From Escherichia phage BAU.Micro_ELP-22, in sequence record OR699282.2: DNA of 64,000 nucleotides; one strand, written 5' to 3'. Below the pieces are notes generated by a model. That model was not told where the DNA came from, made no database searches, and saw only the letters and a list, made by a program, of their open reading frames with translations. The translations under genes and the position numbers were made by a program. Every line of letters begins with the position of its first letter. Within the stretch, counting starts at the first letter, position 1. Shown in pieces: positions 2,908 through 38,857 of this stretch.

Positions 2908-2915
2908 GGTAAATT

Positions 2916-3724: not shown

Positions 3725-3732
3725 TATAAATA
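3725..3732 (+). promoter_or_regulatory. T4-type late promoter box TATAAATA
   Basis: Exact TATAAATA about 35 nt upstream of the first large structural gene (3767). Confidence 0.4.
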
Positions 3733-6474: not shown

Positions 6475-7062
6475 ATGGCATATAAAATAAGAGCAGACCT
6501 TAAGGCAATGCAACAAGTTACAGTTCAGGGTAAAAGTACTGGTCTTGGTGTATTAGGTAATAATATGACTTATTACCCAACAAATTCAAATGGGGAATGT
6601 ACATTCCCCTCTATTACCAAAGATGAAGTTAACTTTATTGTCAATGGATTACCACTTACACAATACGGAGAATTGTATGATGACGCTAGTCTAAATATTA
6701 CTTCATCAGGCTATAGTCTTACATTTAACAGACAGATACCATCATTTATTGGTGGTTATCTTTATAAATTTCCAGCAGTTTCTATTTTTGCTTCAACTGT
6801 TTCATCTGGAACACAAACACAATACGTATATGCAACGTTAGTTCTCGGTGAACCAATTTATAAAATATCACCAACACAAATACAAGAATCTGAAATTATA
6901 ATGTTTATTGGTACTCTGACCGTTGGTACAAGTGGTATTACAAATATAAACATTAATAAAGTATCCAGATTTAGTACATATAGACCTAGTGTTACACAAA
7001 AAGGTTCTTCATTCCCAGTCAGTACTGGAAAACCATCAGAAACTGGTACAATTGGTTGGTAA
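6475..7062 (+). CDS. short paralog (195 aa) carrying the N- and C-terminal modules of the flanking fibre-like proteins
   Basis: TKDEVNFIVNGLPLTQYG near the N-terminus and ...RPSVTQKGSSFPVSTGKPSETGTIGW at the C-terminus. Confidence 0.5.
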   Translation: MAYKIRADLKAMQQVTVQGKSTGLGVLGNNMTYYPTNSNGECTFPSITKDEVNFIVNGLPLTQYGELYDDASLNITSSGYSLTFNRQIPSFIGGYLYKFPAVSIFASTVSSGTQTQYVYATLVLGEPIYKISPTQIQESEIIMFIGTLTVGTSGITNININKVSRFSTYRPSVTQKGSSFPVSTGKPSETGTIGW

Positions 7063-7078
7063 ATTAAGGAAAAGAAAG

Positions 7079-9808
7079 ATGTCATCAAAACGAATTATAG
7101 GAAGTGCCGAGATCCTTGGGAACTTGGCAATTGGACAAAGGTACGCTATGCGTACTTTTAATGGAACCTCACCGAATGCCAATACTGGAATTGTTCAATA
7201 TCCAATATATAAGCGTTCAGAAGTTCAAAGTATTTTAGATATGTTGCCTATATCACGTGTAGGAGAAATGGATTACTTACCATTAAACGTAAGTGGGTCG
7301 TATGAAGGTGCTACACCTATGTCAAGTGACCAAGTAGTTCAGCCAACAATTATTGAAGATGATGGAACCGCCGTTGTTCTGCGTAGCGGAACCAATGGTA
7401 GTACTAAAGGTTTTTATTATTCATTTATACGAGAAATCAGAAATATAACTATGATTTCACAAGAAAGTGTTATTTCAACCAATTCAATGTATAAACCTTC
7501 AATTATGAGTAGTACTGAAAATATTAAGTATTTTATTGGCTCTAATGGTTATGAGATGCTTGGATGTTTAAGTACTGAAGATAATTATATTTTTACTATA
7601 ACCAATGGCACATTTAACGAAATATCACATATTCATGCTAAAGTGCCAAGTACTTCTTTTGGTAATGATATGCCAATATATACACATATTGTTGGGACAA
7701 AGGTTTATATTTGGTGTAAAGATAAAAGTGTTTCTAATTTAGGATTAGCACTTTCAATTTATACAGTAGAGCTAAGTGATGTGAAAGCAAGCTCAATGGC
7801 ATCATTAACAAAAGTTACTGGGTTATCAGGTCAAACTGTTCGAAACACAAGTTATTCTGCATCTAATAACATAAGAGTGTTCGATAAATTATATAGTGTT
7901 GGTACTAGCTCGGATTCATTATTCGAAGTTACATCACCAGTATCACGTGTAGAATTTTCAGACTATACAGACTTTAACATTCAAGCCAACGTTAGTCCTG
8001 ATTTATCAAAAATACGTGTAACTTTATATCCAACACATCGAATGGTTACACCTTTGTATATTTCAACAGTTTATGGTACTGGAATCAGTTTTGTTTATAA
8101 TATAAACTCAAAATCTATGTCACTAGATGGTAGTGCTCGTGCACCTGCAACTGTTTCATATAATAATGGATTTCAAGTTTCTAACCCATTTGAAATTAAT
8201 ATGGTCAACTTCACAGGGACAACTGCTGCTGGTGTATTAGGAAACGCAGGTGGTTTATGTCAAACTAAAGATGGTTTGGTATTTGCATCTAAATTTAGAT
8301 GGAGTTCAACTGAATTTTATGGTCTACAACGATATAAGGTTAGTGGTACACCGTTTGATTCATGGGTTGCCAGTACTAGAACCGCAAGTAACGTTATAAA
8401 TGCAAACGTTTTACCAGTTTTTGGTAGTGCTGTTGGTGCAAACCTTTTAGGTGTACGTTTCATCGATAATAGAAAAATATTATTAGCATGTTCTGGTACG
8501 TATGATGATGTAACATATAATTATAATAATACTGTTTTTTCTGAAATAGGTTCACAACCAACATATCAATATAACTCAGTTCAAAATAATACTACATTAA
8601 ATGGTTTTGCACCACAATCTAATCGTAAACAAATAGGCGATGATTTTACATACACTGCTATGATTTCTCTTGTTGATACCGATGGTAGTGTTAGATGCTA
8701 TGGAACATCATTCATTGAAGGTGTATATAAAACAAGTGGTGGATTATTAAATCCAGATACTTTAGAATTTGATGAAACATATACAATAGAACCAACGGTA
8801 TTAGAATCATTAAAACAAGATATTTTTGCTAATATAGGAAACTCTGGCATTGTTGGTACACTATCTGGACAAATTGTATTATATTATGTACCTGATAATA
8901 CTTTTTCTAAATCCATCGCAGTAGTTTCAGCATATAATCTTAACAATAACCAAGGTTATGCAATCTATGCCGAAGTTGATGTTGTATTATCTGGAACTAA
9001 CATAACTTCAGCTACATTGGTGAGTACTAGATATGAAACACTGAGTTCTGTTACAGGAATTATTACTGAAGCATATATGAAACGTTGTACTGGTCTAACA
9101 GTTGCAAAATATTCAGGATTTGGTTACATTGGTGTTGATGCCGTTCATCAATTTTCACAACCAGGTAATGCACAATTTAAGATGATGATAGCTAAAACAG
9201 TAGATGGTGTCATAACATCAAATCGTTTTTTATCATCTAGTTACATCCAACTTGGTGCAGCATATCAACATGGTGTTATTCCTGGTGTTGGTTTTGGATA
9301 TTACAATTTTCAAGATTCTGACTATCAAACCAAATCTGTATTCAGCGTTTTTGGTACAACATCTGCTGAAATGGATGGTTTAATTAGTGGAAATGGTAGC
9401 GTTAAAGAAAAGATTGTGGTAGTATCACAAGACGTTGCACAAGGATTCTCAGTGTACTTTACACGTGAAGTTCCGGTGTTTTTAGGTGGAATTTTCGACA
9501 GACTACCTATACAAAGTGTTGATTTAAGTACTGTAAAAAGTAACCCAGCTAATACTACGTTCTATTTGTATATACAAATGAACAGGAATACTAAGAAAGC
9601 GTCATATGTTATTAGTACTGAAACAATTGATGAATCTTTAACTAGCACTTACATTGGTAAGATAGTTACTGGAACTTCAGGAATAACTTCAATTGATACA
9701 GAAAAAGTAACTCGTTTTTTGACATATCGTCCAAGTACAACGAAACGTGGTTCAGCGATACCTGCCAGTACTGGTGTACCATCAGGTCCAGGTACACGTT
9801 GGAAATAA
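7079..9808 (+). CDS. large virion fibre/adhesin-like protein, paralog 2 (about 909 aa)
   Basis: ORF track starts at 6989 overlapping the previous gene; start moved to Met 7079 with AGGA RBS. Shares KRSEVQSILDMLPISRVG, LRSGTNGS and the C-terminal VVVSQDVAQGF...KSNPANTTFY...TGVPSGPGTRWK module. Confidence 0.6.
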   Translation: MSSKRIIGSAEILGNLAIGQRYAMRTFNGTSPNANTGIVQYPIYKRSEVQSILDMLPISRVGEMDYLPLNVSGSYEGATPMSSDQVVQPTIIEDDGTAVVLRSGTNGSTKGFYYSFIREIRNITMISQESVISTNSMYKPSIMSSTENIKYFIGSNGYEMLGCLSTEDNYIFTITNGTFNEISHIHAKVPSTSFGNDMPIYTHIVGTKVYIWCKDKSVSNLGLALSIYTVELSDVKASSMASLTKVTGLSGQTVRNTSYSASNNIRVFDKLYSVGTSSDSLFEVTSPVSRVEFSDYTDFNIQANVSPDLSKIRVTLYPTHRMVTPLYISTVYGTGISFVYNINSKSMSLDGSARAPATVSYNNGFQVSNPFEINMVNFTGTTAAGVLGNAGGLCQTKDGLVFASKFRWSSTEFYGLQRYKVSGTPFDSWVASTRTASNVINANVLPVFGSAVGANLLGVRFIDNRKILLACSGTYDDVTYNYNNTVFSEIGSQPTYQYNSVQNNTTLNGFAPQSNRKQIGDDFTYTAMISLVDTDGSVRCYGTSFIEGVYKTSGGLLNPDTLEFDETYTIEPTVLESLKQDIFANIGNSGIVGTLSGQIVLYYVPDNTFSKSIAVVSAYNLNNNQGYAIYAEVDVVLSGTNITSATLVSTRYETLSSVTGIITEAYMKRCTGLTVAKYSGFGYIGVDAVHQFSQPGNAQFKMMIAKTVDGVITSNRFLSSSYIQLGAAYQHGVIPGVGFGYYNFQDSDYQTKSVFSVFGTTSAEMDGLISGNGSVKEKIVVVSQDVAQGFSVYFTREVPVFLGGIFDRLPIQSVDLSTVKSNPANTTFYLYIQMNRNTKKASYVISTETIDESLTSTYIGKIVTGTSGITSIDTEKVTRFLTYRPSTTKRGSAIPASTGVPSGPGTRWK

Positions 9809-9875: not shown

Positions 9876-10442
9876 ATGGTCAAAACTTTATTACCACCAC
9901 CAAAACGTCACAAAATCAAAGAAATGAAAGAACAACGTACATTAAAGATGTACAACAATTTAGTTAAGTTACTGTGTAAAAGTCCATCGCTCAAAGCAGA
10001 GTTTAAAACTGATGATGACCGTAAAGCACTAATTGAGATGAAATATATGCTCAGTAAAATGTCCTTTTACAAATTTGTAAAAGAATACGCATCTGACCCA
10101 TTTAGTCCTCGTTGGAGAGCCAAACCAAGAGAGTATTTTTACGGTGGTTCATATACAGATCGCATTCAAGACACAGTGATGGGAGTTGAATTTGAAATCG
10201 ATTATGAGCCGAATGGTGAGGAAATCTTGCAGATTGAGAAACGTTTACCAAGTGAAGAAGAAATTTATGTTTATGCAAGAAAACTTTCAACTTACAGTTC
10301 AAGAATTACTCTAGGCAATTTAGATTCATTAATTATTTTCTATACACGTGTTGGTGTAGATAAGATGGTAACTAAACTCAATGAACTTTCATTACAACAA
10401 AAACAGATTAATGCATACAAAGACATTACTGATTTATACTAA
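9876..10442 (+). CDS. hypothetical protein, tandem paralog family member 1
   Basis: Shares D-x-D-R-K-x-L-I-E-x-KY-x-LSK and a downstream W/Y-rich segment with 10449 and 10967. Confidence 0.5.
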   Translation: MVKTLLPPPKRHKIKEMKEQRTLKMYNNLVKLLCKSPSLKAEFKTDDDRKALIEMKYMLSKMSFYKFVKEYASDPFSPRWRAKPREYFYGGSYTDRIQDTVMGVEFEIDYEPNGEEILQIEKRLPSEEEIYVYARKLSTYSSRITLGNLDSLIIFYTRVGVDKMVTKLNELSLQQKQINAYKDITDLY

Positions 10443-10448
10443 TGAGGA

Positions 10449-10970
10449 ATGGATATGTTTTTTGGATCAGTTGGAAAACAAAACAGTACTTTAATTTGGC
10501 ATGAAATTATCTTTAAAATTATATCTAAAAGCTACTCACTAAAGGATATTATCACCACAGATAATGATAGACGTATCCTGTTAGATGCAAAATATAAATT
10601 GAGCAAACACCCTTTACTTTCTTTAATCATTGATTACGTTAATGATTATGAATCTAGTCGTTGGAAGTGGGAAGACGGCGGTTTATTTCGTGGAAAAACA
10701 TTCTACGGTGCGGAACGATATGTTTTCAGTGATGCATCAAATGGCGTTAAGTTTGTTATTAGAAACTTTAACTCCAAAGAAAATGATTATCTTGAAAGTG
10801 GAGTGAAAGTATATATCGATAATAATAGCAATGTCCTAACATATGACGAATCACTAATTATGTTACAAATAATGCGTGGTGTTGAAGGTGTAAGAAACAA
10901 CCTTACTAAATTGAAAATCCAGCAAAATGATATACATAATAGACAGAAAATTAAGGGTTTATATAAATGA
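10449..10970 (+). CDS. hypothetical protein, tandem paralog family member 2
   Basis: TDNDRRILLDAKYKLSK motif aligning with neighbours. Confidence 0.5.
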   Translation: MDMFFGSVGKQNSTLIWHEIIFKIISKSYSLKDIITTDNDRRILLDAKYKLSKHPLLSLIIDYVNDYESSRWKWEDGGLFRGKTFYGAERYVFSDASNGVKFVIRNFNSKENDYLESGVKVYIDNNSNVLTYDESLIMLQIMRGVEGVRNNLTKLKIQQNDIHNRQKIKGLYK

Positions 10971-17833: not shown

Positions 17834-18445
17834 ATGAACAAATATCATGTTTACTATACGACAAAATTATCACTTCTTGAAGAATTAAATCAACGAAGTA
17901 CTAAGATGAAACGCTACACTTTAAATGGTATTACTTTTCGATATTTCCCACAAAAAGTTCTTACTTTTGTTAAGAATCCAAAATGCGTGGCATGTGGGAT
18001 TGAAGCTACTGAAGTACGCATTGAACGTTCATTATGTTCTGATCCAGTATATGGTAAACCACATTTAAATGTATATGCTGTATGTGGTCTTTATGAAGTT
18101 TTAATGACAGTTGACCATAATCATCTGGCATCTAAGGGTGGACCTGATTTAGAGTCAAACTTTAATACTATGTGCTCCAGATGTAATCAACTACGTTCGA
18201 ATAAAACTGAAACAGTTGATGAGTTTCTTGAGAAAGTTAAAGGTCGTAATCTTCTCCAAGAACATATGAATAATTTCTTTAATGTACAAAAAAAGAAAAA
18301 TAACATTGACAAGTCGAAACTACTAGAAGAACGTAGGTTACGTCAAGAATTATGGGAAACTGATCATCTATGGCATGTTCGAGAGTTTGGTCGTCATATG
18401 AAAGCTTTGAAAAAAGAACAGAAGAAATTGAATAAACATGATTGA
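17834..18445 (+). CDS. HNH endonuclease (free-standing, homing-endonuclease-like)
   Basis: CVACG...VDHNHLASKGG...N...CSRCNQLRSNK = HNH/zinc motif; start moved from 17789 to Met 17834 with AGGA RBS. Confidence 0.65.
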   Translation: MNKYHVYYTTKLSLLEELNQRSTKMKRYTLNGITFRYFPQKVLTFVKNPKCVACGIEATEVRIERSLCSDPVYGKPHLNVYAVCGLYEVLMTVDHNHLASKGGPDLESNFNTMCSRCNQLRSNKTETVDEFLEKVKGRNLLQEHMNNFFNVQKKKNNIDKSKLLEERRLRQELWETDHLWHVREFGRHMKALKKEQKKLNKHD

Positions 18446-18457
18446 TATGATATTATA

Positions 18458-18487
18458 GGGACTTGAGTATTCAAGTCCTTTTTTTTG
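18458..18487 (+). terminator. intrinsic terminator (gggacttga-gtat-tcaagtcc + TTTTTTTT)
   Basis: 8-bp perfect stem and T8 after the HNH gene. Confidence 0.6.
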
Positions 18488-18497
18488 GAGAAAATAA

Positions 18498-18854
18498 ATG
18501 AAATCTAAAATCTTTTTACCACAATTAATGTGGCATCTAGCAGAGTTAGATGAAAATGATGAATATACGGACTATGGTGCATGGGATGACAGTACTGAAA
18601 CTTTTAAACCAGATGTAAAATATAAAATCATCTGCAATGAAAGCAAAGGACACAAAAGGTGGACTGAAGAATTTGATCTCGTATTTCTTGACATGAGCAC
18701 AAATAAGTTTTATCATTGTAATTATGAACGAGGTTTAACAGAAGATAGACCAGTACAACCATTCAGTACTGAAACTGATGGTATTAAGTGCAATGAAGTT
18801 TCTGTTACCAGAGAAGAAATTATCACTTATCGAACTTTGTGGAAATATTTGTAA
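18498..18854 (+). CDS. hypothetical protein (118 aa)
   Basis: ORF with GGAG RBS-like sequence; no motif. Confidence 0.45.
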   Translation: MKSKIFLPQLMWHLAELDENDEYTDYGAWDDSTETFKPDVKYKIICNESKGHKRWTEEFDLVFLDMSTNKFYHCNYERGLTEDRPVQPFSTETDGIKCNEVSVTREEIITYRTLWKYL

Positions 18855-18855
18855 A

Positions 18856-19254
18856 ATGCTTAAAGAATTAGATTTTTCAAACTTAGAAATTATCAGTGCT
18901 GTAAAAAACATTTCCGATATGGGAGATGAGAAAGCAGTTCTTGTTACTATTACTTTTGTAAAAGAAAAAGATAGCTATAGCCATTTAACTGGTATTGAAG
19001 AACTAATTCATAAAACCAATCTTGAGAATGATGGTAAACTCATCAAGCTTCAGGCTTCCTACACGCAAAAAACGTCAAATTTTATAGACCTAAATAATGT
19101 AGTCAAGGTGGTATACAATCATCCTGAACACACATATAGGAACACGACAAGAAATGAAAATGTTGCTAACGATTCGAATATTATCGAAGATGTTGAATTC
19201 ATAAACACAATTTTTGATCGTTGTTCTAAGGATTTAAAAAAAGTATACATGTAA
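18856..19254 (+). CDS. hypothetical protein (about 132 aa)
   Basis: Start moved to the Met just after the upstream stop (ORF track 18778). Confidence 0.4.
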   Translation: MLKELDFSNLEIISAVKNISDMGDEKAVLVTITFVKEKDSYSHLTGIEELIHKTNLENDGKLIKLQASYTQKTSNFIDLNNVVKVVYNHPEHTYRNTTRNENVANDSNIIEDVEFINTIFDRCSKDLKKVYM

Positions 19255-19255
19255 T

Positions 19256-19283
19256 GGGACATTATATGTTCCAATGATATAAT
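19256..19283 (+). promoter_or_regulatory. promoter, GGGACA -35-like box, 16-nt spacer, TGATATAAT extended -10
   Basis: atGGGACA-n16-TATAAT; same architecture recurs at 30352 and 49365. Confidence 0.4.
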
Positions 19284-19289
19284 GTATAT

Positions 19290-19806
19290 AGAAAATGACA
19301 ACGGACATTGAAAAATGGACACTGAGAACCTACTTCTCTTGAAAATGTAAAGGATAGATGAGCTTTACCGTTGTAGCGAACAGCAGAAGAAACCTGTTAG
19401 AGTACTGGCATTCAAACAAACACGATGTAAGACCACGAATCACGGCGACACGGCTGTATAAAGAACTCCGATAAGCATACAGAGAGTTCCTAGATAGATG
19501 TATAAGGTTCGCACCTTACCAGATTTGCTAAGGGAGTTCAAGAATAGCGGACGCAATTTTTACAAGAAAGTTGCGTCCAAAATTTGAGAACAAGTACTAC
19601 TTTGATCGAATAGAGTTAGTACTGAGTGCTGTTGATGAAAAGACCAGCGACCGTTGCATATGACTGCGATAGAGAGAAACCGAGCAACCCGCTTTCGCTC
19701 TCTAAATTTTGGTACAAGAAAGATCCGTCCAAAATTTGAGAAATTCGCAATTCGATAATATCCGATGCCATCATCGTCAAGAGAGACTTAATTGTCTCTT
19801 TTTTAT
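19290..19806 (+). ncRNA. putative structured non-coding RNA locus (about 520 nt), no ORF over 15 codons
   Basis: Bounded by the promoter above and the terminator at 19781; visibly GC-richer than flanks; 30-nt direct repeat at 19561-19590 and 19723-19752; hairpins ggacgcaa/ttgcgtcc, aaggt-tcgc-acctt, cccc-tgc-gggg. Confidence 0.35.
19781..19806 (+). terminator. intrinsic terminator (agagac-ttaatt-gtctct + TTTTTTATT)
   Basis: Perfect 6-7 bp stem followed by a T-run at the 3' end of the non-coding locus. Confidence 0.5.
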
Positions 19807-19944
19807 TACCTTCATTCCCCTGCGGGGGGATGTAATAGTCCTCAACAAATCCCGTCAAGTTTTTAAAGTACATTATCATTTTCAGAAGGAACTAGTTTAC
19901 GAAGTAAACGCAGTGACTTCTTGAGTTACGAGAGAACGAAGTGA

Positions 19945-20373
19945 ATGAGTAACACAACGAAAATATCCGATAAATCCGAATTAACACAAATGTTATTCAA
20001 AGAATATTTTGAGTTTCAGATAAAAGACGAACAACAATTACCACAGCAATATTTGAAAAGAATTAAAGATCCGTCAGTAATTACTAAAGAAACTAATTTT
20101 TATAATAGTATTTTGGATTTCGTTAAATCAGTTCATACAACAAGACCTATTGTAGTTTTGTTTTTTGATAAATCTATTCCTTTAGTAGTTCCTGAAAATG
20201 TATTTTTTATTTCAGAAACTGATTTAAATAATCAAAGTACTGTAAGTAGATTAAGAAATTGCTTACTTGTAGTATGTGATTCTTCTTTGTATAATAACAG
20301 AATACTATGGGATAGAAGTAAACGCAATGCAGTTTCTGAAATGAATCCTGAAATTACCTTTATTATTAACTAA
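19945..20373 (+). CDS. hypothetical protein (142 aa)
   Basis: ORF downstream of the non-coding locus; no motif. Confidence 0.45.
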   Translation: MSNTTKISDKSELTQMLFKEYFEFQIKDEQQLPQQYLKRIKDPSVITKETNFYNSILDFVKSVHTTRPIVVLFFDKSIPLVVPENVFFISETDLNNQSTVSRLRNCLLVVCDSSLYNNRILWDRSKRNAVSEMNPEITFIIN

Positions 20374-20405
20374 ATAATAAGAGAATAACTCTAAGGAGAG
20401 ATATT

Positions 20406-20846
20406 ATGGAAGATATTAATGATTTACGACACGTAATGGACTTTATCGGAAGTACTGAAGAAGATAATTCGTATGATGAAGTACTATTAACTTTTATTGA
20501 AAATAGTTTGTTTTTAAGTTCTGCTGCACATAACTGGCACTTACAATGTCATTTTTATACAAAGCATTTACAATTAGATGAACTATATAAAGAATTACCA
20601 GAATATGTAGACGCATTTGTTGAAGGTATCATGAATAATCGTGGTGCTTTACAAGTTGGAACTGGTAATAGTTATCGTTTTACACCAATTGAAGATTGTG
20701 TACCAATTCTTGAAGAATATGTAGAGCAATGTAGAGCAATTCATGATATGCTTGAAGAATCAGGTGATTACGGCAGTGTAAACACATTAGAAGATATTAT
20801 GAGTTTTGTTGAAGGAACACTTTACAAACTTAAAGTTTTACAATAA
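20406..20846 (+). CDS. ferritin-like / Dps-like four-helix-bundle protein (146 aa)
   Basis: AAHNWHLQCHFYTKHLQLDELYKELPEYVDAFVEGI resembles the Dps ferroxidase-centre region, with His, His, Asp and Glu at the expected spacing. Confidence 0.35.
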   Translation: MEDINDLRHVMDFIGSTEEDNSYDEVLLTFIENSLFLSSAAHNWHLQCHFYTKHLQLDELYKELPEYVDAFVEGIMNNRGALQVGTGNSYRFTPIEDCVPILEEYVEQCRAIHDMLEESGDYGSVNTLEDIMSFVEGTLYKLKVLQ

Positions 20847-20853
20847 AATATAT

Positions 20854-20884
20854 GGAGAGTCATTGTGACTCTCCTTTTCTTTTG
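20854..20884 (+). terminator. intrinsic terminator (ggagagtca-ttg-tgactctcc + T-run)
   Basis: 9-bp perfect stem and TTTTCTTTT. Confidence 0.6.
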
Positions 20885-20894
20885 GACAAATAAA

Positions 20895-21512
20895 ATGAAA
20901 TCTCATGATTTAGCAAAATTACTACTATCTCAACCAAATCTAGAAATTTATCATTATGATGCAGAGAGTGACTTGCATTATCAGAATTTTGATAATAAAT
21001 TAATGGTCACCCCATCTGGCATTTTCACAACGGTAAAACCCACATCAGTTTCTGAAAATGTACTTACACCATACGAAACCCCGCTCTTGGGTCATGTACA
21101 AATTTTCTTTAAGGATGGTACTATTACTCCAAAATTGGAGGGTTCATCTATTCAAACTGTTCTTAACTTAGAATCTGGGTTGATATTTAACATTCCTTAT
21201 GAAAAGCCAATTGTTTTATTAGGTAAAAATCAATCAGCACCATCAGGGAATCAAAATGCTGTTTGGTATACACCCGATGATATTGATTTCATTTCTGTAC
21301 TGACAGAATATGAACCTAATACTTGGCATGGAACATGGGAAACTATGTCGTATGATGAAGCAATTGAATGTGGTAAAAATTTAGTTAAAATGTTATTTCC
21401 ACAAAAAGAAGAACTTTCACAAGAACAAATTGATTCATTTTCTAAAGATTTTCCTGATTCTGAATTCAATGTAAAAGTATCACCTTCTATGATTGATAAA
21501 ATTAAAAAATAA
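20895..21512 (+). CDS. hypothetical protein, paralog of 22248
   Basis: Start moved to the Met after the terminator (ORF track 20865). Shares DLAKLLLSQPNLEIYHYD, TPSGIF and YTPDDIDF...TWHGTWETMSYDEA with the 22248 product. Confidence 0.5.
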   Translation: MKSHDLAKLLLSQPNLEIYHYDAESDLHYQNFDNKLMVTPSGIFTTVKPTSVSENVLTPYETPLLGHVQIFFKDGTITPKLEGSSIQTVLNLESGLIFNIPYEKPIVLLGKNQSAPSGNQNAVWYTPDDIDFISVLTEYEPNTWHGTWETMSYDEAIECGKNLVKMLFPQKEELSQEQIDSFSKDFPDSEFNVKVSPSMIDKIKK

Positions 21513-21518
21513 AAGAGG

Positions 21519-21878
21519 TTGAACATGAGTGATTACCGCGTAACATCTGGACTAATGGCACGTCTTATTGAAGCAGTTCCTGAAGATGATTATGAAGCTA
21601 TTTCAGATCGTCTTTTTGACGCAGATTCTAAACTCCATATTACATATGATGGTGCATTGATTTACAGTACTGATATTGATATGTCTAGTTATGAATTTGA
21701 GATTTCTTTTGGTAACAAACTAACTACTGAAGAATTCGCTCGAAAATGTGAGCGTGAAGGATTCTGTATTGATATTAGTTCAGTTCAGCCATACACATCA
21801 CTGTGGTATGATGGTGCTGATAGTCCAATGTCTACTACATCTTTACAGGATTTTCTAAATGCAAATCAAAAAGATTAA
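21519..21878 (+). CDS. hypothetical acidic protein (119 aa)
   Basis: ORF with AGAGG RBS; no motif. Confidence 0.45.
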   Translation: MNMSDYRVTSGLMARLIEAVPEDDYEAISDRLFDADSKLHITYDGALIYSTDIDMSSYEFEISFGNKLTTEEFARKCEREGFCIDISSVQPYTSLWYDGADSPMSTTSLQDFLNANQKD

Positions 21879-22251
21879 ATTCCACCAGCATTGTTCTATA
21901 CATGAATGTGATGATTGTGGTATACAAATGAGTGACATTTATACAGTTTCCTGTAAAGGTTTCAAATTCACTCACGGTGAACCTGCTTATTGTTATGGTA
22001 CAGAAGAAGGTGATATCGAAGTAGTACTGAAAGAATTGTTCCAGTACTTGCAAAGTGTAGGTCATGATGTTACAATACCCACATATTATGAAGATGATTA
22101 TGATGCACATGTAGAAGAAAATACATATTATAATCAATTCGTTTATGGTAATGGTTTTATCACATACCTACATGAGAATGGTATTGAGGTAAAAACTAAG
22201 TACACCAGTGATGATTATGATGATGATAATTCTATGGAGATTGAAGATTGA
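21859..22251 (+). CDS. hypothetical Cys-rich acidic protein (130 aa; start uncertain)
   Basis: HQHCSIHECDDCG...SCKGF suggests a small metal-binding N-terminus; alternative start at Met 21928. Confidence 0.35.
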   Translation: MQIKKIKFHQHCSIHECDDCGIQMSDIYTVSCKGFKFTHGEPAYCYGTEEGDIEVVLKELFQYLQSVGHDVTIPTYYEDDYDAHVEENTYYNQFVYGNGFITYLHENGIEVKTKYTSDDYDDDNSMEIED

Positions 22252-22832
22252 AAGCAAAAGACTTAGCAGCACTGTTGTTGCAGAATCCTGAAATGGAAGT
22301 GTATCATGAGCACATGCACATTGATGACATGTGTGACGCTTATTATTCACCAGAAAATGTGTCTGGTATTGAAATTACCCCTAGTGGAGTATTCATCAGT
22401 ACTGAACGTATTGATTATAATTCTCAGCAAGAAATCAAAACTCCACATAATAAACCTCGCATTGGTGCTATTGACCTAGTATTTCATCAGGACCGTTTGG
22501 TGGAATATGATGAAGACGATGGTACTACCCGAACTGATGTTGAGAATGTTGTTTTTCGTTTTTATAATGCATACGAAGACCCAACTACTGGAGAAGATTT
22601 CTTCCGTGAGCTATTAGAGGATGGAGAAGTTTATGGTCAGGATGGTACGGTTTTTGTACTGGACCCTAACTATGAGCCAGATCACAATACATGGCAATTC
22701 TATACACCAGAAGATGTAATGGAAGTTAAAGTACTTACTGATCTTGACGATAATTGGAATCCTATGTATACTTCAATGACATATGAAGAAGCCAAAGAAT
22801 ACTTCGTTTCTAAACTAAACATTACAAAATAA
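22248..22832 (+). CDS. hypothetical protein, paralog of 20895
   Basis: DLAALLLQNPEMEVYHEH, TPSGVF and YTPEDVMEV...NWNPMYTSMTYEEA align with the 20895 product. Confidence 0.5.
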   Translation: MKAKDLAALLLQNPEMEVYHEHMHIDDMCDAYYSPENVSGIEITPSGVFISTERIDYNSQQEIKTPHNKPRIGAIDLVFHQDRLVEYDEDDGTTRTDVENVVFRFYNAYEDPTTGEDFFRELLEDGEVYGQDGTVFVLDPNYEPDHNTWQFYTPEDVMEVKVLTDLDDNWNPMYTSMTYEEAKEYFVSKLNITK

Positions 22833-22849
22833 TAAGGATTCACAAATTT

Positions 22850-23131
22850 ATGAAAATTGTTGCAAGTGCATGGATGAAACTACCAGATGGTACAACTGCG
22901 TTTGAAGAATATGGCTTTGTTGAAAGTGTCGATGAATTAAAGCGTTTCAAGTGTGAAAATGATGATGATGTTTTTGATATTGTATTTGTATATCATCATA
23001 TTCCTAATGATACTGATTATGAACATTATTATTATCATCCTGATTTGTTGGAAACACTTGTATGCGACAACTATCATGAAATTGATGAAAATACAGCTTT
23101 ACTAATGTTGAGTACCGTATCTCCGGTATAA
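22850..23131 (+). CDS. hypothetical acidic protein (93 aa)
   Basis: ORF; no motif. Confidence 0.4.
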   Translation: MKIVASAWMKLPDGTTAFEEYGFVESVDELKRFKCENDDDVFDIVFVYHHIPNDTDYEHYYYHPDLLETLVCDNYHEIDENTALLMLSTVSPV

Positions 23132-23139
23132 GGAGTAAT

Positions 23140-23619
23140 ATGTATAATCTTATAATTATCCGCGAACCATATGAATCTGACAACAGTTCAACTGATGGTG
23201 AGGTTTTAGTATATCAAAGTTATGAACAAAGTGGCATTGAACATGAATTAAAAGATTATTTACGTCAACATATATATCTATATCGTACTGAACCACGTGA
23301 ACAGTATGGAGATATAATGTTTATCGTAACTCATAATGGTGCAGTAATTGAACATGTAAATATGACAAATAACATGTATTTTCATAATTACACTGACACG
23401 TCTAAAGAATTAGGAAACGATTTCAAGTCTGTTTTCGATGCATTGCGTATCAATTTTTTTAAAAATGACAAATTCTGTACTGATATTAGATTAGAAGAAG
23501 CAAATACAAAAAAGAAACTTTCTCGAAAATACGAGAGTGATAGAAAAAAAGAACAAGAGATTCAGCGTTTACACGAATTGATGAAAAAATACCCTAATGA
23601 GGTACAACATGGCTCTTAG
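23140..23619 (+). CDS. hypothetical protein (159 aa)
   Basis: ORF; basic C-terminal tail. Confidence 0.4.
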   Translation: MYNLIIIREPYESDNSSTDGEVLVYQSYEQSGIEHELKDYLRQHIYLYRTEPREQYGDIMFIVTHNGAVIEHVNMTNNMYFHNYTDTSKELGNDFKSVFDALRINFFKNDKFCTDIRLEEANTKKKLSRKYESDRKKEQEIQRLHELMKKYPNEVQHGS

Positions 23620-23947
23620 AGGTTCAAATCAATATAAATGTATTGCAGAGATCAGGAAGAAAGATGGAACACTTGTAGACCGAGCATTGAAGCAAGAATA
23701 TAAAGAATTACGTGATGTGGTACATAATGATAGTTATGGTGGGATGCGTCGTCAAAAAATTTATGAATATCTAAAGAAAGGTTTAGAAATTCAGGTTAAT
23801 GGTCTTCATTGCATTCAAACAAAAAACGATCCTGATATTCTACGTTTGTTGAAAGAAGATAAGATTGAAATGTTTAATGTTCCTATTTCATTCTATGGTA
23901 ATAAACTAAAATGTAAGCATACTTTCTTGAGGATTAAAAATGGTTGA
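23597..23947 (+). CDS. hypothetical basic protein (116 aa)
   Basis: ORF overlapping upstream gene; no motif. Confidence 0.4.
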   Translation: MRYNMALRGSNQYKCIAEIRKKDGTLVDRALKQEYKELRDVVHNDSYGGMRRQKIYEYLKKGLEIQVNGLHCIQTKNDPDILRLLKEDKIEMFNVPISFYGNKLKCKHTFLRIKNG

Positions 23948-24164
23948 TTCATTTATGAAAAAAATCTTTAAAAAATTACTATCTGGATTTGAAAAAGCAG
24001 TAAGTCTTATTTTCAGTTCAGTTGTAATGGTTATTACAGTACTGGCGTTTTCTCTAGTACTGCATTTTGTACCATTCTGGTTAATCTTTATTGTACTTAT
24101 TGCTCTGCTAGGTGCACATGTTTATTATGTTTACCGTGACGCATTGGATGATGATAACGATTAA
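23940..24164 (+). CDS. small membrane protein (74 aa, two predicted TM helices)
   Basis: Two hydrophobic stretches (AVSLIFSSVVMVITVLAFSLVL and FWLIFIVLIALLGAHVYYVY) and an acidic C-terminus. Confidence 0.45.
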   Translation: MVDSFMKKIFKKLLSGFEKAVSLIFSSVVMVITVLAFSLVLHFVPFWLIFIVLIALLGAHVYYVYRDALDDDND

Positions 24165-24172
24165 ATGTATTT

Positions 24173-24198
24173 GACCTCACTATGTGGGGTCTTTTTTT
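24173..24198 (+). terminator. intrinsic terminator (gacctcac-tat-gtggggtc + TTTTTTT)
   Basis: Stem with one G-U pair plus T7. Confidence 0.5.
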
Positions 24199-24210
24199 AA
24201 GGAAAATTAT

Positions 24211-24663
24211 ATGCTTATAGAAACAGAAACATTTAAGCGTTTTATTGACGTATGTCGTGATACGTGTTTTTGTTATCTTTCATCACAAGAACAGTTCGAT
24301 GCAATGAGTGATGTGTTAGGATATCGCCGTTCGGTATTGATGTATTTTGATGGTCCTTTGATTGAAGTTCATGATGATGTGTATTCCCTACAATATGTAT
24401 CAATTAACAATGCGTTCATTTTTATTGCTGACTCGTACTCAATTGTAGTTGAGGAACGTGGTAAAGGTATACCAACAACACACTATATTGATTGTCAAAG
24501 AACTGATTGTGTTTATAGTTCTGGACTAATACAAACACCAATTCCATATCCTAGCATTTATATAAACACACTCCATCAAGAAATTATTGAGTACTGTAAT
24601 AGTATTTCTGATACAGATACACAGTATTTTCCTATTGTATTATTGAAAGGAGTTAGAACATGA
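24211..24663 (+). CDS. hypothetical protein (about 150 aa)
   Basis: Start moved to the Met after the terminator with AAGGA RBS (ORF track used a GTG inside the terminator). Confidence 0.45.
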   Translation: MLIETETFKRFIDVCRDTCFCYLSSQEQFDAMSDVLGYRRSVLMYFDGPLIEVHDDVYSLQYVSINNAFIFIADSYSIVVEERGKGIPTTHYIDCQRTDCVYSSGLIQTPIPYPSIYINTLHQEIIEYCNSISDTDTQYFPIVLLKGVRT

Positions 24664-25049
24664 GATGGCGTAAACGACACGTAAAAAGATTTGATAAAAT
24701 AATCAAAAAATATTACTCACATAAGTTAGATCCAATCATACTTCAACTAAGAAGTAGTATGTTTGATAGACGTTTTCCACAGTGTTTAGAATCGTACAGT
24801 CGTAAACGTTACAAGAATGAATACCTGGTATATCGTTATGATTTATCAGAATTCTTTTTGAATACTCGTGTATCTGTACCCATCAGACTGTACTCAAGGG
24901 TAAAACGAAGTAGGGTTCAAGATATTACATATGGATATCTTATGATTGAAATCGACGACCTCAATGAAAAAACTGGCAGAAATTACAGTACTTTATGTCT
25001 GGAAAACCATGATTCAATAAAAAGAATCATAGAAGAGTTGGGAAAGTGA
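24660..25049 (+). CDS. hypothetical basic protein (129 aa)
   Basis: ORF with 4-nt overlap; Arg/Lys-rich. Confidence 0.4.
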   Translation: MRWRKRHVKRFDKIIKKYYSHKLDPIILQLRSSMFDRRFPQCLESYSRKRYKNEYLVYRYDLSEFFLNTRVSVPIRLYSRVKRSRVQDITYGYLMIEIDDLNEKTGRNYSTLCLENHDSIKRIIEELGK

Positions 25050-25066
25050 GATTTTTAGTGCTATAA

Positions 25067-25423
25067 TTGGAGATGAGTATGAAATACATCGATAAAGGTA
25101 CAGTGGAGACACAGTACTGGAATATCCATATTGCTGGTGATATTCAAACAGCAAGAGAATACACAAGAAAATTTGCGTTTAAGCATGGCTTTTGTGTACA
25201 ATTAATTCCCTGTGAATATATCTACACTGGTGGTCTTGAAAGTGGGATGTGTGCTCGTATTATTCAGTACCCACGCTTTCCAAAAGAAGAAGTATATCTC
25301 AACCGAGATGTATTAAACTATGCAAAGGGTTTAGCTGAAGAGTTGTGTCAAAAGAGCTTTACTATAGAGCGAAATAATGATACAATTTATTATGAAAGTG
25401 ATGAACCTTTACACAAGAAATAA
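25067..25423 (+). CDS. hypothetical protein (118 aa)
   Basis: ORF with GGAG RBS. Confidence 0.4.
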   Translation: MEMSMKYIDKGTVETQYWNIHIAGDIQTAREYTRKFAFKHGFCVQLIPCEYIYTGGLESGMCARIIQYPRFPKEEVYLNRDVLNYAKGLAEELCQKSFTIERNNDTIYYESDEPLHKK

Positions 25424-25434
25424 AAGGAAAATAT

Positions 25435-25566
25435 ATGAATGGACTAAAGAAATTTGGTAAAGATTTTCTAAAATGTATACGCTATACATATGATGCAAAC
25501 CCAGAAATGACTGCTATTGTGGGTGTGTTTATTACACTTGTTGTATTAAGTTTTATTGTGGTGTAA
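25435..25566 (+). CDS. small membrane protein (43 aa)
   Basis: Own translation MNGLKKFGKDFLKCIRYTYDANPEMTAIVGVFITLVVLSFIVV with AAGGAAA RBS; below ORF-track cutoff. Confidence 0.3.
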   Translation: MNGLKKFGKDFLKCIRYTYDANPEMTAIVGVFITLVVLSFIVV

Positions 25567-25570
25567 AAGT

Positions 25571-25774
25571 ATGATTGAAATCAATGCTGATATCTATTGT
25601 AGTGCAGCACCAAATTACTTCATTTATGCTTTGAGTACATTTGGTGAAACTGACGGTGAAACTTTTGTTTTAGTAGATAATACGACATGGTACAAAACAA
25701 GTAATAAAATTCCTAAAGACGTTTTGGAAACATATGTTCGTATTGAAAATAAAAACATATATGTAAATTTATAG
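25571..25774 (+). CDS. hypothetical protein (about 67 aa)
   Basis: Start moved to Met 25571 (ORF track 25556 overlaps the small ORF). Confidence 0.35.
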   Translation: MIEINADIYCSAAPNYFIYALSTFGETDGETFVLVDNTTWYKTSNKIPKDVLETYVRIENKNIYVNL

Positions 25775-25781
25775 GTAAAAT

Positions 25782-26192
25782 ATGATTGAAATGGAAGGAA
25801 CTCTGGTGTATGATCCAGACCGTGGCACTATGAAAAAGAAGAAGGACTTCTGGTTAGTACTACAACTTCCATTACAGTTGGTTCGATACTACCAGTACTT
25901 CATCAGAACTGACTTACATATTGATATTAAAGACCCACAATGGGGAGCACATGTCAGTATCGTTCGTGGTGAAGTGCCACCAAATCCAGAGTACTGGAAA
26001 AAGTACGATGGAATGAAAGTAAAGATAAAGTTCAATCCTTGTATTGAGATAGTAAAAGATAAAAAGAATCCAGGTTCATTCTTTATCATTGAATTTGAAG
26101 ATGATTTCATCACACATATTAGAAATGAACTAGGACTACCAACCAAGTACTTTAAATATCACATCACTGTAGGTAGAACCTACTACGATTAA
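25782..26192 (+). CDS. 2H-phosphoesterase family protein (LigT / cyclic phosphodiesterase / Acb1-like), 136 aa
   Basis: Two H-h-[ST]-h motifs (AHVSIV near residue 57 and YHITVG near residue 127) about 70 residues apart, the hallmark of the 2H fold. Confidence 0.5.
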   Translation: MIEMEGTLVYDPDRGTMKKKKDFWLVLQLPLQLVRYYQYFIRTDLHIDIKDPQWGAHVSIVRGEVPPNPEYWKKYDGMKVKIKFNPCIEIVKDKKNPGSFFIIEFEDDFITHIRNELGLPTKYFKYHITVGRTYYD

Positions 26193-26360
26193 TGTGGTTT
26201 TTATGGTAAATATATCTTGTAATAAAATAAAAATATGCTATACTACTTAAACATTTGAAAAGAACGTTTTTGTACTGTAGAAAGTCCGATGAGGCTTTTG
26301 CAAATGGCCTCTTTGCCATCTTTGTGATTGCCCATCTTAACAATCAACAAAGGAGGCGTT

Positions 26361-27287
26361 TTGAAACAAGCGAAAAAAGCACTGAAAACTAAGACTACTT
26401 ATGGTGTTCTAGTTTGCACAGTACTTGTCGCTGCGATTGGATTTTATGGTTTTTCTCAAAATGATCGTGTATCATCATCGGACGAAAGTCAGGTACACAA
26501 TTTAAAACCACAAGTTACGCAAATTCAAAAGCAGGAATTACCAAAGGTAGAAATATCAAAGGATGTTCCACGCGGCGAGAAGCATTATACGGTTCAACCT
26601 GGTGATAGTTATTATTCTATTGCTAAAAAGTTTAAACCTAAAAATGTACAACTTGAAGAGTATGTTATTTTGTTGAAAAATATCAATTTAAATGCTACTC
26701 TTCATACTTCTCAGGGTATCTTTATCCCAACAAAAGAGGATTTGAAGAACGTATTGTTACCAGATGTGACTGTACTGTTTGATTATAATGATCCAGAAAT
26801 TGTCAATCACATCAAAGAAGCTGAAGGTTCAATTGAATTTCAGTCCAAGAACAAACGCCGTTTACTTGGTGGGAAAGTCGGAGTTCCTTTCCACAATTCT
26901 AAATTTCATCCTTACAAGGACATGAAAGGTAATTATACAATAGGTTATGGGCATTATTTGGGTAGAAAAGAATCTGATGCGATTAAGTACAGAAACGGTA
27001 TTACCAAAGCTCAAGCCAATAAACTTTTAATGCAAGATATGAAAAGAACATATAATGACTTTTTATTATTGATGCAGAAAAAAGAAGCAGTAAATCTGAC
27101 CAAAGAACAACAACGTATTCTTTATGAAATGTCCTATACAATGGGTGTTGATAAATTAGCAACGTTTAATAAACTTTGGAAAAGTGTGAAAAATGATAAC
27201 CCTAAGAAATTTAAAAAAGAAATTATGAATTCCTTATGGTATCGTCAAGTTACAAACCGAGCAGATTTGTTGTTAAGTTCACTCTAA
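26361..27287 (+). CDS. membrane-anchored LysM-domain lysozyme (GH24, T4 lysozyme-like catalytic region)
   Basis: N-terminal hydrophobic segment (YGVLVCTVLVAAIGFYGF), LysM-like HYTVQPGDSYYSIAKKF, then YKDMKGNYTIGYGH and WYRQVTNRADLL matching T4 lysozyme motifs from memory. Start set at TTG 26361 after AGGAGG; ORF track 26328 is also TTG. Confidence 0.6.
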   Translation: MKQAKKALKTKTTYGVLVCTVLVAAIGFYGFSQNDRVSSSDESQVHNLKPQVTQIQKQELPKVEISKDVPRGEKHYTVQPGDSYYSIAKKFKPKNVQLEEYVILLKNINLNATLHTSQGIFIPTKEDLKNVLLPDVTVLFDYNDPEIVNHIKEAEGSIEFQSKNKRRLLGGKVGVPFHNSKFHPYKDMKGNYTIGYGHYLGRKESDAIKYRNGITKAQANKLLMQDMKRTYNDFLLLMQKKEAVNLTKEQQRILYEMSYTMGVDKLATFNKLWKSVKNDNPKKFKKEIMNSLWYRQVTNRADLLLSSL

Positions 27288-27303
27288 AAAAGGAAGGTGA
27301 AGT

Positions 27304-38075: not shown

Positions 38076-38762
38076 ATGGCTACAATGCTTGATCGATATG
38101 GCGTACCGCTCGCTGGCGGTGGTCGTATCTCTATGAAACAACCAAAAGCAAAATACAAATTTCGTGTTATTTTCTTTGGTTTTGGTACTAATGATGATGG
38201 TAATATGATTACACTAGACACCAATACAGTTGGGGCAGTATCTGTATCACATGAAAATGTCACTGTTCATAGTTACAACAGTTCTGCACACTATAAAGGT
38301 AAGTACACTTGGGATACAATTGATGTTGCTTTCCGTGACTCAGTAGGTAATGCTTCTGCTAAAGCACTATACAACCAAATGCGTAAAGAATTCAACTACT
38401 ACAGTCAAGAATCTCGCATGACTGATTCACAATTTAAATTCGAAATGTGGATTCAAGAACTTGATGGTTCTAATAGTGAAAATACAACAAACTTGTTTGA
38501 AGGAACATTGAGTACTTGGGTATGTCAAGGTTGCTTTATTGAATCCAGCAACTTTGGTGATTGGGATTATTCCTCAAGTGAAGCACAAGTTATTTCAATG
38601 ACTGTTCAACCAGATGGTTGTGCTAAATTGGGTCCAAATGGCGAAGCGTTCGGTGATGAAGTTAGTGGCTTCGGTAATCCATCAACTGCTACCTCTATTT
38701 CTGGTGCACAAACTAATATTAGTAGTACTACTCTACCAGATAGTAACTTCTACGAAAATTAA
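38076..38762 (+). CDS. tail tube protein (gp19 family), paralog 1
   Basis: KAKYKFRVIFFGFG and YTWDTIDVAFRDSVGNASAKALYNQM fit the gp19-family pattern; AGGAGA RBS; directly downstream of the sheath. Confidence 0.6.
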   Translation: MATMLDRYGVPLAGGGRISMKQPKAKYKFRVIFFGFGTNDDGNMITLDTNTVGAVSVSHENVTVHSYNSSAHYKGKYTWDTIDVAFRDSVGNASAKALYNQMRKEFNYYSQESRMTDSQFKFEMWIQELDGSNSENTTNLFEGTLSTWVCQGCFIESSNFGDWDYSSSEAQVISMTVQPDGCAKLGPNGEAFGDEVSGFGNPSTATSISGAQTNISSTTLPDSNFYEN

Positions 38763-38783
38763 TTTTATTTAAACTTAATATAT

Positions 38784-38812
38784 AGCCTCGAATCTATTCG
38801 GGGCTTTTTTTA
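38784..38812 (+). terminator. intrinsic terminator (agcctcgaa-tcta-ttcggggct + TTTTTTT)
   Basis: 9-bp stem with one mismatch plus T7. Confidence 0.5.
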
Positions 38813-38857
38813 TGCTAAATAAAGTATAATGCCTTATAAAATAAAAAAGAGGTTGCT

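Follow-up and report, generated by a model that had tools for sequence, protein, structure and literature searches.

A conserved block of small genes in a Rak2-like jumbo coliphage that includes a candidate SAM or SAM-AMP lyase, a Dps-like mini-ferritin and a paralogous gene pair

Among known counter-defence enzymes, those that cleave S-adenosylmethionine (SAM) or its conjugate with adenosine monophosphate (SAM-AMP), namely Svi3-3 (PDB entries 6ZM9 and 6ZNB), the T3 SAMase and the SAM-AMP lyases of Clostridium botulinum and phages (PDB entry 9GAB; candidate AcrIIIB4), come nearest to the product of ORF13, the last of thirteen open reading frames (ORFs) at positions 19945-25423 of a stretch of Escherichia phage BAU.Micro_ELP-22 (sequence record OR699282.2). 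The SAM and SAM-AMP lyases are PII-like trimers that hold the substrate between subunits (PMC7877911, PMC12255297). Structurally conserved between the two groups are only a glutamate at the end of the T-loop (E69/E71) and a glutamine in the B-loop (Q104/Q108) (PMC7877911, PMC12255297), and the mutual sequence similarity of the characterised SAMases is barely detectable (PMC7877911). Here we examine the thirteen genes, of which ORF13 alone can be read mechanistically in terms of host defence. The window refers throughout to the whole 64,000 nucleotides analysed.

The whole window belongs to an Asteriusvirus (PBECO4/121Q-type), a Rak2-like jumbo coliphage. The region is 99.8% identical to Escherichia phage JP4 and 97-99% identical to UB, PBECO4, phAPEC6, G17 and 121Q, all six being Asteriusvirus-type, Rak2-like jumbo myoviruses of about 350 kb. 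It is occupied by plus-strand ORFs of 74-205 residues with overlaps or gaps of 48 nt at most (Table 1). A first-pass annotation, made from the sequence alone, had put their number at about 15; the count is 13, and the same 13 are listed in the public annotations of near-identical phages, labelled almost throughout as hypothetical proteins. That annotation had also spoken of an island. The G+C content, however, is like that found elsewhere in the window, and every Rak2-like genome that was fetched shows the block in synteny (RaK2, Erwinia phage Hallingskeid, Salmonella phage 7t3, EJP2, fENko-Kae01 and JNE01). The common order is a spanin gene with an HNH gene, a non-coding gap, an rI.-1-like gene accompanied by one to three phrog_18200 genes, a thymidine kinase gene (tk) and a small ORF followed by a terminator; a lysozyme gene is seen farther downstream wherever the fetched locus reaches that far (RaK2, JNE01, fEgEco12, G17 and phAPEC6). 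Most of the ORFs are 30-70% identical in the relatives, unlike the content of fast-turnover anti-defence islands. We are moderately confident, and this applies jointly to the whole of our favoured reading of the region, that it is a conserved, co-directional accessory-gene block of a known jumbo coliphage group and neither a mobile nor a hypervariable island. Already known were the hypothetical genes themselves, in a phage group both sequenced and published, and the placing of the paralogous pair in one PHROG. What is new is a divergent member of the family with a predicted SAM-lyase fold, a probably ancient A/B split of phrog_18200 and conserved candidate iron ligands in a virion-associated Dps-like protein.

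The AlphaFold model of ORF13 is confident, with a predicted local distance difference test score (pLDDT) of 84.5 and a predicted template modelling score of 0.79, and four of the five models exceed a pLDDT of 82. The predicted topology is beta-alpha-beta-beta-alpha-beta-beta. When the model was used as a Foldseek query, ten SAM or SAM-AMP lyase chains ranked first (E values of 3.6e-5 to 1.1e-3, template modelling scores up to 0.67), followed by CutA and PII proteins. Two methods name phage SAM lyases and SAM-AMP lyases as the best fold matches, and the PII-like, ferredoxin-type alpha/beta fold can be superposed on Svi3-3. On the strength of the model, the assignment of ORF13 to the SAM-lyase type of fold is very probable.

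Eleven diverse members of the ORF13 family share the invariant residues G20, G37, C39, T50-G51-G52, E54, G56, Y64-P65-R66-F67, Q91 and S93. E54 stands at the start of beta3, just past the beta2-beta3 turn, and Q91 lies in the alpha2-beta4 loop. The spacing between them, 37 residues, equals that of the C. botulinum enzyme (E71-Q108) and compares with 35 in Svi3-3. Judged by topology alone and not by a residue-level superposition, E54 and Q91 may correspond to the catalytic glutamate and glutamine of the lyases. In the predicted hairpin an aromatic residue (Tyr or Phe) at position 47 should face E54 across the strand, and the invariant G37 lies earlier in the chain.

Several points weigh against this interpretation. 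The model was built from a shallow alignment of five sequences. Equivalents in ORF13 of Gly56 and Tyr58 of Svi3-3, which serve in ribose packing and in a cation-pi contact to the sulfonium, are not established. The family invariants C39, TGG, R60 and YPRF are not SAM-lyase signatures, and in place of a T-loop of the SAM-lyase kind ORF13 has no more than a tight turn. Profile searches of PDB sequences with the ORF13 family found no SAM lyase, the comparison of the family with the T3 SAMase by hhalign gave a probability of 0.3%, and no sequence homology to a characterised SAMase was detected. Most of the homologues that we examined sit among genes for replication and nucleotide metabolism rather than at the leading early end, and a metabolic role would also fit. 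As regards the wider block, eight of the 13 ORFs have no functional clue of any kind, the evidence that ties the Dps-like protein to virions comes from one mass-spectrometric study (of phAPEC6), and our literature search found no Asteriusvirus transcriptome.

The placing of the homologues speaks for an alternative in which the replication and nucleotide-metabolism module would include ORF13 as a PII/CutA-like protein, small-molecule-binding or metabolic, that acts on a substrate other than SAM or in regulation and resembles the lyases only through shared PII-like ancestry. Homologues lie between the helicase and DNA polymerase genes in N4-like roseophages, after the primase gene in a T4-like Erwinia phage, and elsewhere near DNA ligase/dCMP deaminase and gyrase genes. 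Moreover, conservation of the family is high across 196 phage records; it is far more conserved and far more widespread than the SAMases with their scant mutual similarity (PMC7877911), and no role in SAM lyases has been described for C39, R60 or YPRF. CutA and PII proteins come next in the Foldseek list, behind the ten lyase chains. We consider this alternative possible but rather unlikely. Tentatively, and with no greater assurance, phrog_4848 might be a deeply diverged and unusually conserved branch of the SAM-lyase/PII-like proteins with a Cys/Arg/YPRF motif of its own and a usual place within replication modules, a family undescribed in the literature that we could search. If so, either the depletion of SAM would be a much commoner phage strategy than is now recognised, or the substrate cleaved by the family would be another one, sulfonium or nucleotide-linked, such as SAM-AMP or a novel signal.

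To return to the candidate lyase, we rate the chances that ORF13 actually has SAM or SAM-AMP lyase activity as even. Most likely it would act as a PII-like trimer that cleaves SAM, or a SAM-derived nucleotide such as SAM-AMP, to methylthioadenosine (MTA; or MTA-AMP) and homoserine lactone. Such an activity could starve SAM-dependent type I restriction and bacteriophage exclusion (BREX) systems, or quench signalling by SAM-AMP; both the catalysis and the substrate are read from the predicted structure. The first-pass view of the region as one of host takeover and anti-defence therefore keeps a single counter-defence candidate, the non-acidic ORF13, but finds no support for its DNA mimics, as discussed below.

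The immediate genomic context of ORF13 would suit an accessory gene. A candidate promoter directly upstream (Table 1) is conserved in fEgEco12. In JNE01 both the promoter-like site and ORF13 are missing and the flanking genes abut, a clean single-gene indel. This moron-like behaviour fits an accessory or counter-defence role. Homologues were found by tblastn in 196 phage genomes, among Rak2-like jumbo phages, PVP-SE1-like phages and Vequintavirinae, N4-like roseophages, T4-like rhizobiophages and Pakpunavirus. ORF13 itself has no sequence match in Pfam, NCBIfam or PDB, and its sole PHROG, phrog_4848, is unannotated. The fEgEco12 record names the orthologue a 'SAM hydrolase', a label that the paper on that phage does not mention; it is the only public record we found that names a function for the family, and it has no published support. 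Nor did we find a paper describing SAM lyases in the jumbo or N4-like phages that carry the family.

ORF13 is a testable candidate for SAM-directed counter-defence against type I restriction-modification, BREX or SAM-AMP signalling. Confirmation of its activity would allow many 'hypothetical protein' entries to be re-annotated, since the family is present in about 200 phage genomes. It could also help to explain differences in host range among therapeutic Asteriusvirus isolates with the gene or, as JNE01, without it.

The second gene of the block encodes a protein of the Dps-like type. It matches Pfam DUF5856 well above the cut-off (E = 1.9e-28; 99.8 bits against 34.6) and falls in phrog_858 ('starvation-inducible transcriptional regulator'; 1.9e-35), whereas the match to Pfam Ferritin (E = 0.0019, 18.6 bits) stays below the cut-off of 24.5. 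Its weak PDB matches are all members of the Dps family (Dps of Staphylococcus aureus, Dlp-2 and NapA). Residues H42, H54, D69 and E73 are invariant in six divergent homologues, down to 49% identity, and their spacing of 12/15/4 (His-x11-His ... Asp-x3-Glu) is that of H28, H40, D55 and E59 of the aligned Dlp-2 (1JIG). We take the latter to be the di-iron (ferroxidase) ligands of Dps. The two histidines, the aspartate and the glutamate of the phage protein, which keep the expected spacing, are therefore candidate ferroxidase ligands.

A 100% identical orthologue, gp306c of phAPEC6 (16.9 kDa), is present in the virion mass spectrometry (MS) table of that phage with six peptides and 65.8% coverage, and none of gp296-305 appears there (PMC7247149). 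The orthologue in fENko-Kae01 is flagged as identified by liquid chromatography with tandem MS (LC-MS/MS); we give this little weight, the sample being an ultrafiltered lysate in which 220 proteins were seen, many of them non-structural. The Dps-like protein is probably packaged, or at least abundant late, and is not a DNA mimic. Public labels for the gene are rI.-1 homologue (RaK2, G17) or starvation-inducible DNA-binding protein. The resemblance to Dps and T4 RI.-1 lies in the DUF5856 match, the alignment to Dps structures and the retained spacing; the protein departs from them in its sub-threshold Ferritin match and in the occurrence of its phAPEC6 orthologue in virions. To our knowledge, presence in the virion has not been described for T4 RI.-1. 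The RaK2 authors doubted that the lysis-inhibition role put forward for T4 RI.-1 applies in phages without the T holin and RI, and RaK2-like phages lack this system (PMC3622015). A Dps-like ferritin with conserved candidate iron ligands in the virions of jumbo phages is an under-explored item.

The first-pass annotation had called many of the ORFs strongly acidic and had noted that such regions in virulent phages typically hold acidic DNA mimics, of which T7 Ocr is one. Like Ocr, the products are small, acidic and phage-encoded and lack enzymatic motifs, and several have an isoelectric point (pI) of 4.1-4.4. The pI is below 4.8 in seven of the 13, including six consecutive ORFs at 20406-23131 (pI 4.1-4.8, net charge -12 to -28), and to this extent the description was accurate. 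There is nevertheless no enrichment, as acidity of this degree is found in 16 of the 46 small ORFs elsewhere in the window (Fisher p = 0.33, Mann-Whitney p = 0.36). The net charge per residue of the acidic ORFs in the region is -0.06 to -0.16, compared with -0.239 for T7 Ocr, which was fetched as a control; at -0.12 to -0.16, against -0.24, the charge density is about half that of Ocr. The sole Ocr-like value in the window, -0.230, belongs to the product of 44417-45397, which PHROGs annotates, together with its neighbour 45399-45794, as 'virion structural protein'. In this genome acidity is not a useful marker of DNA mimicry because it is at background level and because Ocr-like values occur in virion-structural families. 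Easily misread, it is here the norm of the proteome, and the proteins that it marks are virion proteins and ferritin-like ones rather than DNA mimics. The two proteins just named are also the most acidic of the window (326 residues, net charge -75 and 29% aspartate plus glutamate; 131 residues, net charge -21).

An early host-takeover or anti-defence island, with acidic small proteins that include DNA mimics blocking restriction or DNA-binding defence proteins, is accordingly improbable. The run of six acidic ORFs speaks for it, as does the fact that those of the six other than the Dps-like one are devoid of a known domain or fold and absent from the phAPEC6 virion list. A strict host-type promoter lies upstream (19256-19283), and paralogue A, ORF13 and tk vary in presence among related phages. 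The unremarkable frequency of acidic ORFs, their low charge density and the synteny of the block across genera at mostly 30-70% identity argue against it. Furthermore, one of the acidic ORFs is the Dps-like ferritin, and the region ORFs have no match to Ocr, ArdA or other DNA-mimic or anti-restriction families in Pfam, PHROGs or NCBIfam.

The claim that the genes at 20895 and 22248 are paralogous is fully upheld. BLASTP aligns 20895-21509 with 22248-22829 over nearly their full length (27% identity, E = 2e-13), and both products match the profile of phrog_18200 from end to end (2.1e-74 and 2e-90). The starts that had been assigned, ATG at 20895 and TTG at 22248, are backed by the family alignment, both retaining the N-terminus MK[AS][KH][DE]LA..LL common to most aligned members; a longer alternative ORF with a GTG start at 20865 would begin inside a terminator hairpin. 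In an all-against-all BLASTP of the window ORFs this is the sole paralogy within the region. Duplication is commonplace in the window, with about nine other paralogous ORF pairs elsewhere. Several further sets lie at 3767-6463, 6475-7062 and 6989-9808; 9876-10970; 38076-39634; and 59185-59940, and include two proteins of about 900 residues (27% identity, E = 1e-61) and the pair 38076/38858 (31% identity).

PHROG 18200 is without annotation and already contains both paralogues; that it divides into an A and a B subfamily, and that both occur together in one genome, comes from the present analysis. Members were found only in Rak2-like jumbo phages and metagenomic relatives. There are 51 phage records of them; searches of 5.8 billion and 1.84 billion proteins gave 24 clusters and 34 representatives, respectively. 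Every plausible member stands alone as a protein of about 160-220 residues. By local tblastn, Hallingskeid, 7t3, EJP2 and fENko-Kae01 have two or three copies each, one of those in fENko-Kae01 being broken, and RaK2 and JNE01 have a single copy each. In a simple neighbour-joining distance tree, computed without support values, the copies cluster by type and not by phage. The A-type clade holds the 20895 gene, Hall_1, 7t3_1, fENko_1 and EJP2_0; the B-type clade holds the 22248 gene, RaK2, JNE01, Hall_2, 7t3_2 and EJP2_1/2. Signatures of the A type (MKSH-LAK-LL and FFKD-T-TP) and of the B type (MKAK-LAALLLQNPE) both occur in Hallingskeid, 7t3, EJP2 and the window phage. Given this clustering by type, the A/B duplication probably predates the split of the Rak2-like genera. 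That the paralogues instead stem from a recent tandem duplication in this phage, as redundant copies drifting apart with no separate function, is very improbable: only 736 nt separate them, on one and the same strand, and A is dispensable in many related phages, but they share no more than 27% identity, and the type signatures shared with Hallingskeid, 7t3 and EJP2, like the grouping by type in the tree (which has no support values), are at odds with it.

Paralogue B is present in all 51 matching phage records. Close orthologues of A are found in 24, and at least 11 related coliphages match through the B copy only. Neither paralogue is in the phAPEC6 virion list, which points to an intracellular role, nor is either flagged in the fENko-Kae01 LC-MS/MS data. 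Our best guess is a diverged pair that acts inside the cell and not in the virion, in which the group cannot do without B but can dispense with A. With both types retained in several genera, they could act as a heteromeric pair. The structure model of paralogue B (pLDDT 71) matches no known fold, and a profile search of PDB sequences with the family gave nothing meaningful. Matches of the family profile to consensus tetratricopeptide repeat proteins were rejected, as they are weak and rest on one 22-residue stretch, no stretch passing alone. A 1189-residue YDG-repeat protein and a 407-residue repeat protein (P0046 and P0052) were likewise discarded as relatives; their scores are apparently sums of weak repeat matches.

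The public records of these genes contain discrepancies. In phAPEC6 paralogue A is intact and 99.5% identical (2451-3065 of the fetched locus L007), and the record annotates only a 168-nt coding sequence there. Paralogue B of JP4 (5349-5888 of locus L001) has been started 45 nt late, with loss of the conserved N-terminus. The A-type copy of fENko-Kae01 (4749-5332 of locus L009) appears to be frameshifted.

The region had been said to contain several strong terminators. These are real, but two lie inside it (Table 1) and a third upstream, at 18457-18480. We compared eight genomes, the window and divergent relatives. A hairpin followed by a T-run stands at the position of the first internal terminator in seven of the eight, with differing stem sequences, and the second is kept in position in all eight, again with differing stems; ARNOLD also annotates the latter in phage G17. 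Since position is conserved while the stems diverge, the two internal terminators are probably functional, and they suggest three transcription units (19945-20846, 20895-24164 and 24211 onward). The first would comprise ORF1 and the Dps-like mini-ferritin gene. The second would be a ten-gene unit of group-specific ORFans, with paralogues A and B, four further acidic or mildly acidic proteins, a small basic protein and a small membrane protein, and would span the position at which relatives carry thymidine kinase. The third would comprise ORF11, ORF12 and ORF13. We infer these units, and early expression from host-type promoters, from sequence features.

A strict host-type promoter pattern, [TG][TG]GACA-N15-18-TAYAMT, occurs eight times on the plus strand of the window (16607, 19256, 30352, 45604, 45715, 46202, 46296 and 49365) and not at all on the minus strand, against an expectation of 1.15. 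Promoters of this kind are real in this genome. None lies within 19945-25423; the closest one (19256-19283) stands at the head of the non-coding locus that precedes the region. A generic sigma-70 scan of 18000-27500 gave no excess, with 53 sites as against 51 in shuffled sequence, and it is the stricter pattern alone that is informative. PA5oct, a distant relative, relies on the RNA polymerase of the host, and its promoters are of the type TTGAC/TATAATA (PMC7318152). The T4-type late promoter TATAAATA was discarded as a marker of the region genes (one occurrence in the window, 11 expected). As an observation in its own right the octamer is markedly depleted, being found once (3725-3732) against 11.1 +/- 3.3 expected.

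The non-coding locus adjoining the region upstream (19255-19944, 690 nt) begins with the sigma-70-like promoter GGGACA-N16-TGATATAAT just mentioned. It has 85.9% nucleotide identity to JNE01, compared with 46-50% for the flanking proteins, and its conservation in RaK2 and Hallingskeid is partial. A direct repeat lies within it (about 19555-19590 and 19705-19742). From its sequence the locus looks like a conserved non-coding RNA locus. Rfam has no match in the window, this locus included.

Table 1. Features of the region 19945-25423 (aa, residues; pI, isoelectric point)
Feature	Position	Strand	Description
ORF1	19945-20373	+	142 aa, pI 6.6; phrog_35272 at 1e-97; no Pfam or NCBIfam match
Dps-like mini-ferritin (DUF5856, T4 RI.-1 family)	20406-20846	+	146 aa, pI 4.3
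Intrinsic terminator after Dps-like gene	20854-20874	+	9-bp stem then T-run, -14.3 kcal/mol
Paralogue A, A-type phrog_18200	20895-21512	+	205 aa, pI 4.7; phrog_18200 at 2e-74
ORF4	21525-21878	+	117 aa (119 from TTG 21519), pI 4.1; phrog_10749 at 5e-42
ORF5	21859-22251	+	130 aa, pI 4.4; phrog_9509 at 1e-42
Paralogue B, B-type phrog_18200	22248-22832	+	194 aa, TTG start, pI 4.2, net charge -28; phrog_18200 at 2e-90
ORF7	22850-23131	+	93 aa, pI 4.2; phrog_38016 at 1e-65; no Pfam or NCBIfam match above cut-off
ORF8	23140-23619	+	159 aa, pI 5.8; phrog_27487
ORF9, small basic protein	23609-23947	+	112 aa (116 aa, pI 9.6, from 23597); phrog_20476
Small membrane protein (predicted)	23940-24164	+	74 aa; phrog_22328; homologues in RaK2 and JNE01
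Intrinsic terminator after membrane-protein gene	24173-24191	+	8-bp stem then T7, -11.6 kcal/mol
ORF11, fast-evolving	24211-24663	+	150 aa, pI 4.5; phrog_35643; 44% identity in fEgEco12
ORF12, basic	24660-25049	+	129 aa, pI 9.9; phrog_22631; homologues in RaK2 and JNE01
Sigma-70-like promoter candidate, extended -10	25038-25067	+	TTGGGA-N18-TGcTATAAT; 10 of 12 consensus positions plus TG
ORF13, PII-like with predicted SAM-lyase fold, candidate SAM or SAM-AMP lyase	25079-25423	+	114 aa, pI about 5.9; phrog_4848

Scans of the 13 ORFs against Pfam, PHROGs and NCBIfam gave no functional family apart from DUF5856; sub-threshold Pfam matches were to RusA (ORF8), DUF3051, DUF1125 and DUF1430. The nine remaining ORFs (starting at 19945, 21525, 21859, 22850, 23140, 23609, 23940, 24211 and 24660) each fall in an unannotated PHROG, with no NCBIfam match and none in the PDB profile searches that were run; those with ORF4, ORF5, ORF8, ORF9 and ORF12 returned nothing meaningful. 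RusA was rejected as an identity for ORF8, the Pfam match (E = 0.024) being below the cut-off and not reproduced in the PDB profile search. Homologues of ORF1 were found by tblastn only in Asteriusvirus-type phages (loci L001-L003, L007 and L010), and those of ORF4 occur in JNE01, 7t3, EJP2 and fENko-Kae01. The stop codon of ORF5 overlaps the start of paralogue B, and its RaK2 homologue, ORF016, likewise lies directly upstream of a B-type gene; ORF5 has invariant His and Cys residues near its N-terminus (H9, H11, C17, C20 and C45). In the predicted membrane protein a Kyte-Doolittle hydrophobic stretch covers approximately residues 20-66, a length that suits two membrane spans. The ATG at 24211 is supported as the start of ORF11 because phrog_35643 covers residues 10-159 of the longer ORF.

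ORF9 is conserved in all the Rak2-like relatives examined (loci L002 and L004-L010); its position in fEgEco12, RaK2 and EJP2, the relatives inspected in detail, is at the thymidine kinase gene or slightly upstream of it. The clade of the window phage is without tk. In fEgEco12 the gene (6997-7581 of locus L002) is placed between the equivalents of 23609-23947 and 23940-24164, and it is present in the equivalent region of RaK2, 7t3, EJP2, Hallingskeid and fENko-Kae01. Downstream of the block, the flanking gene at 25782-26192, labelled a 2H phosphoesterase, matches Pfam 2H-SAK at 25.6 bits, below the cut-off of 27; its translation contains two H-x-S/T motifs (HVS and HIT), and the label is plausible.

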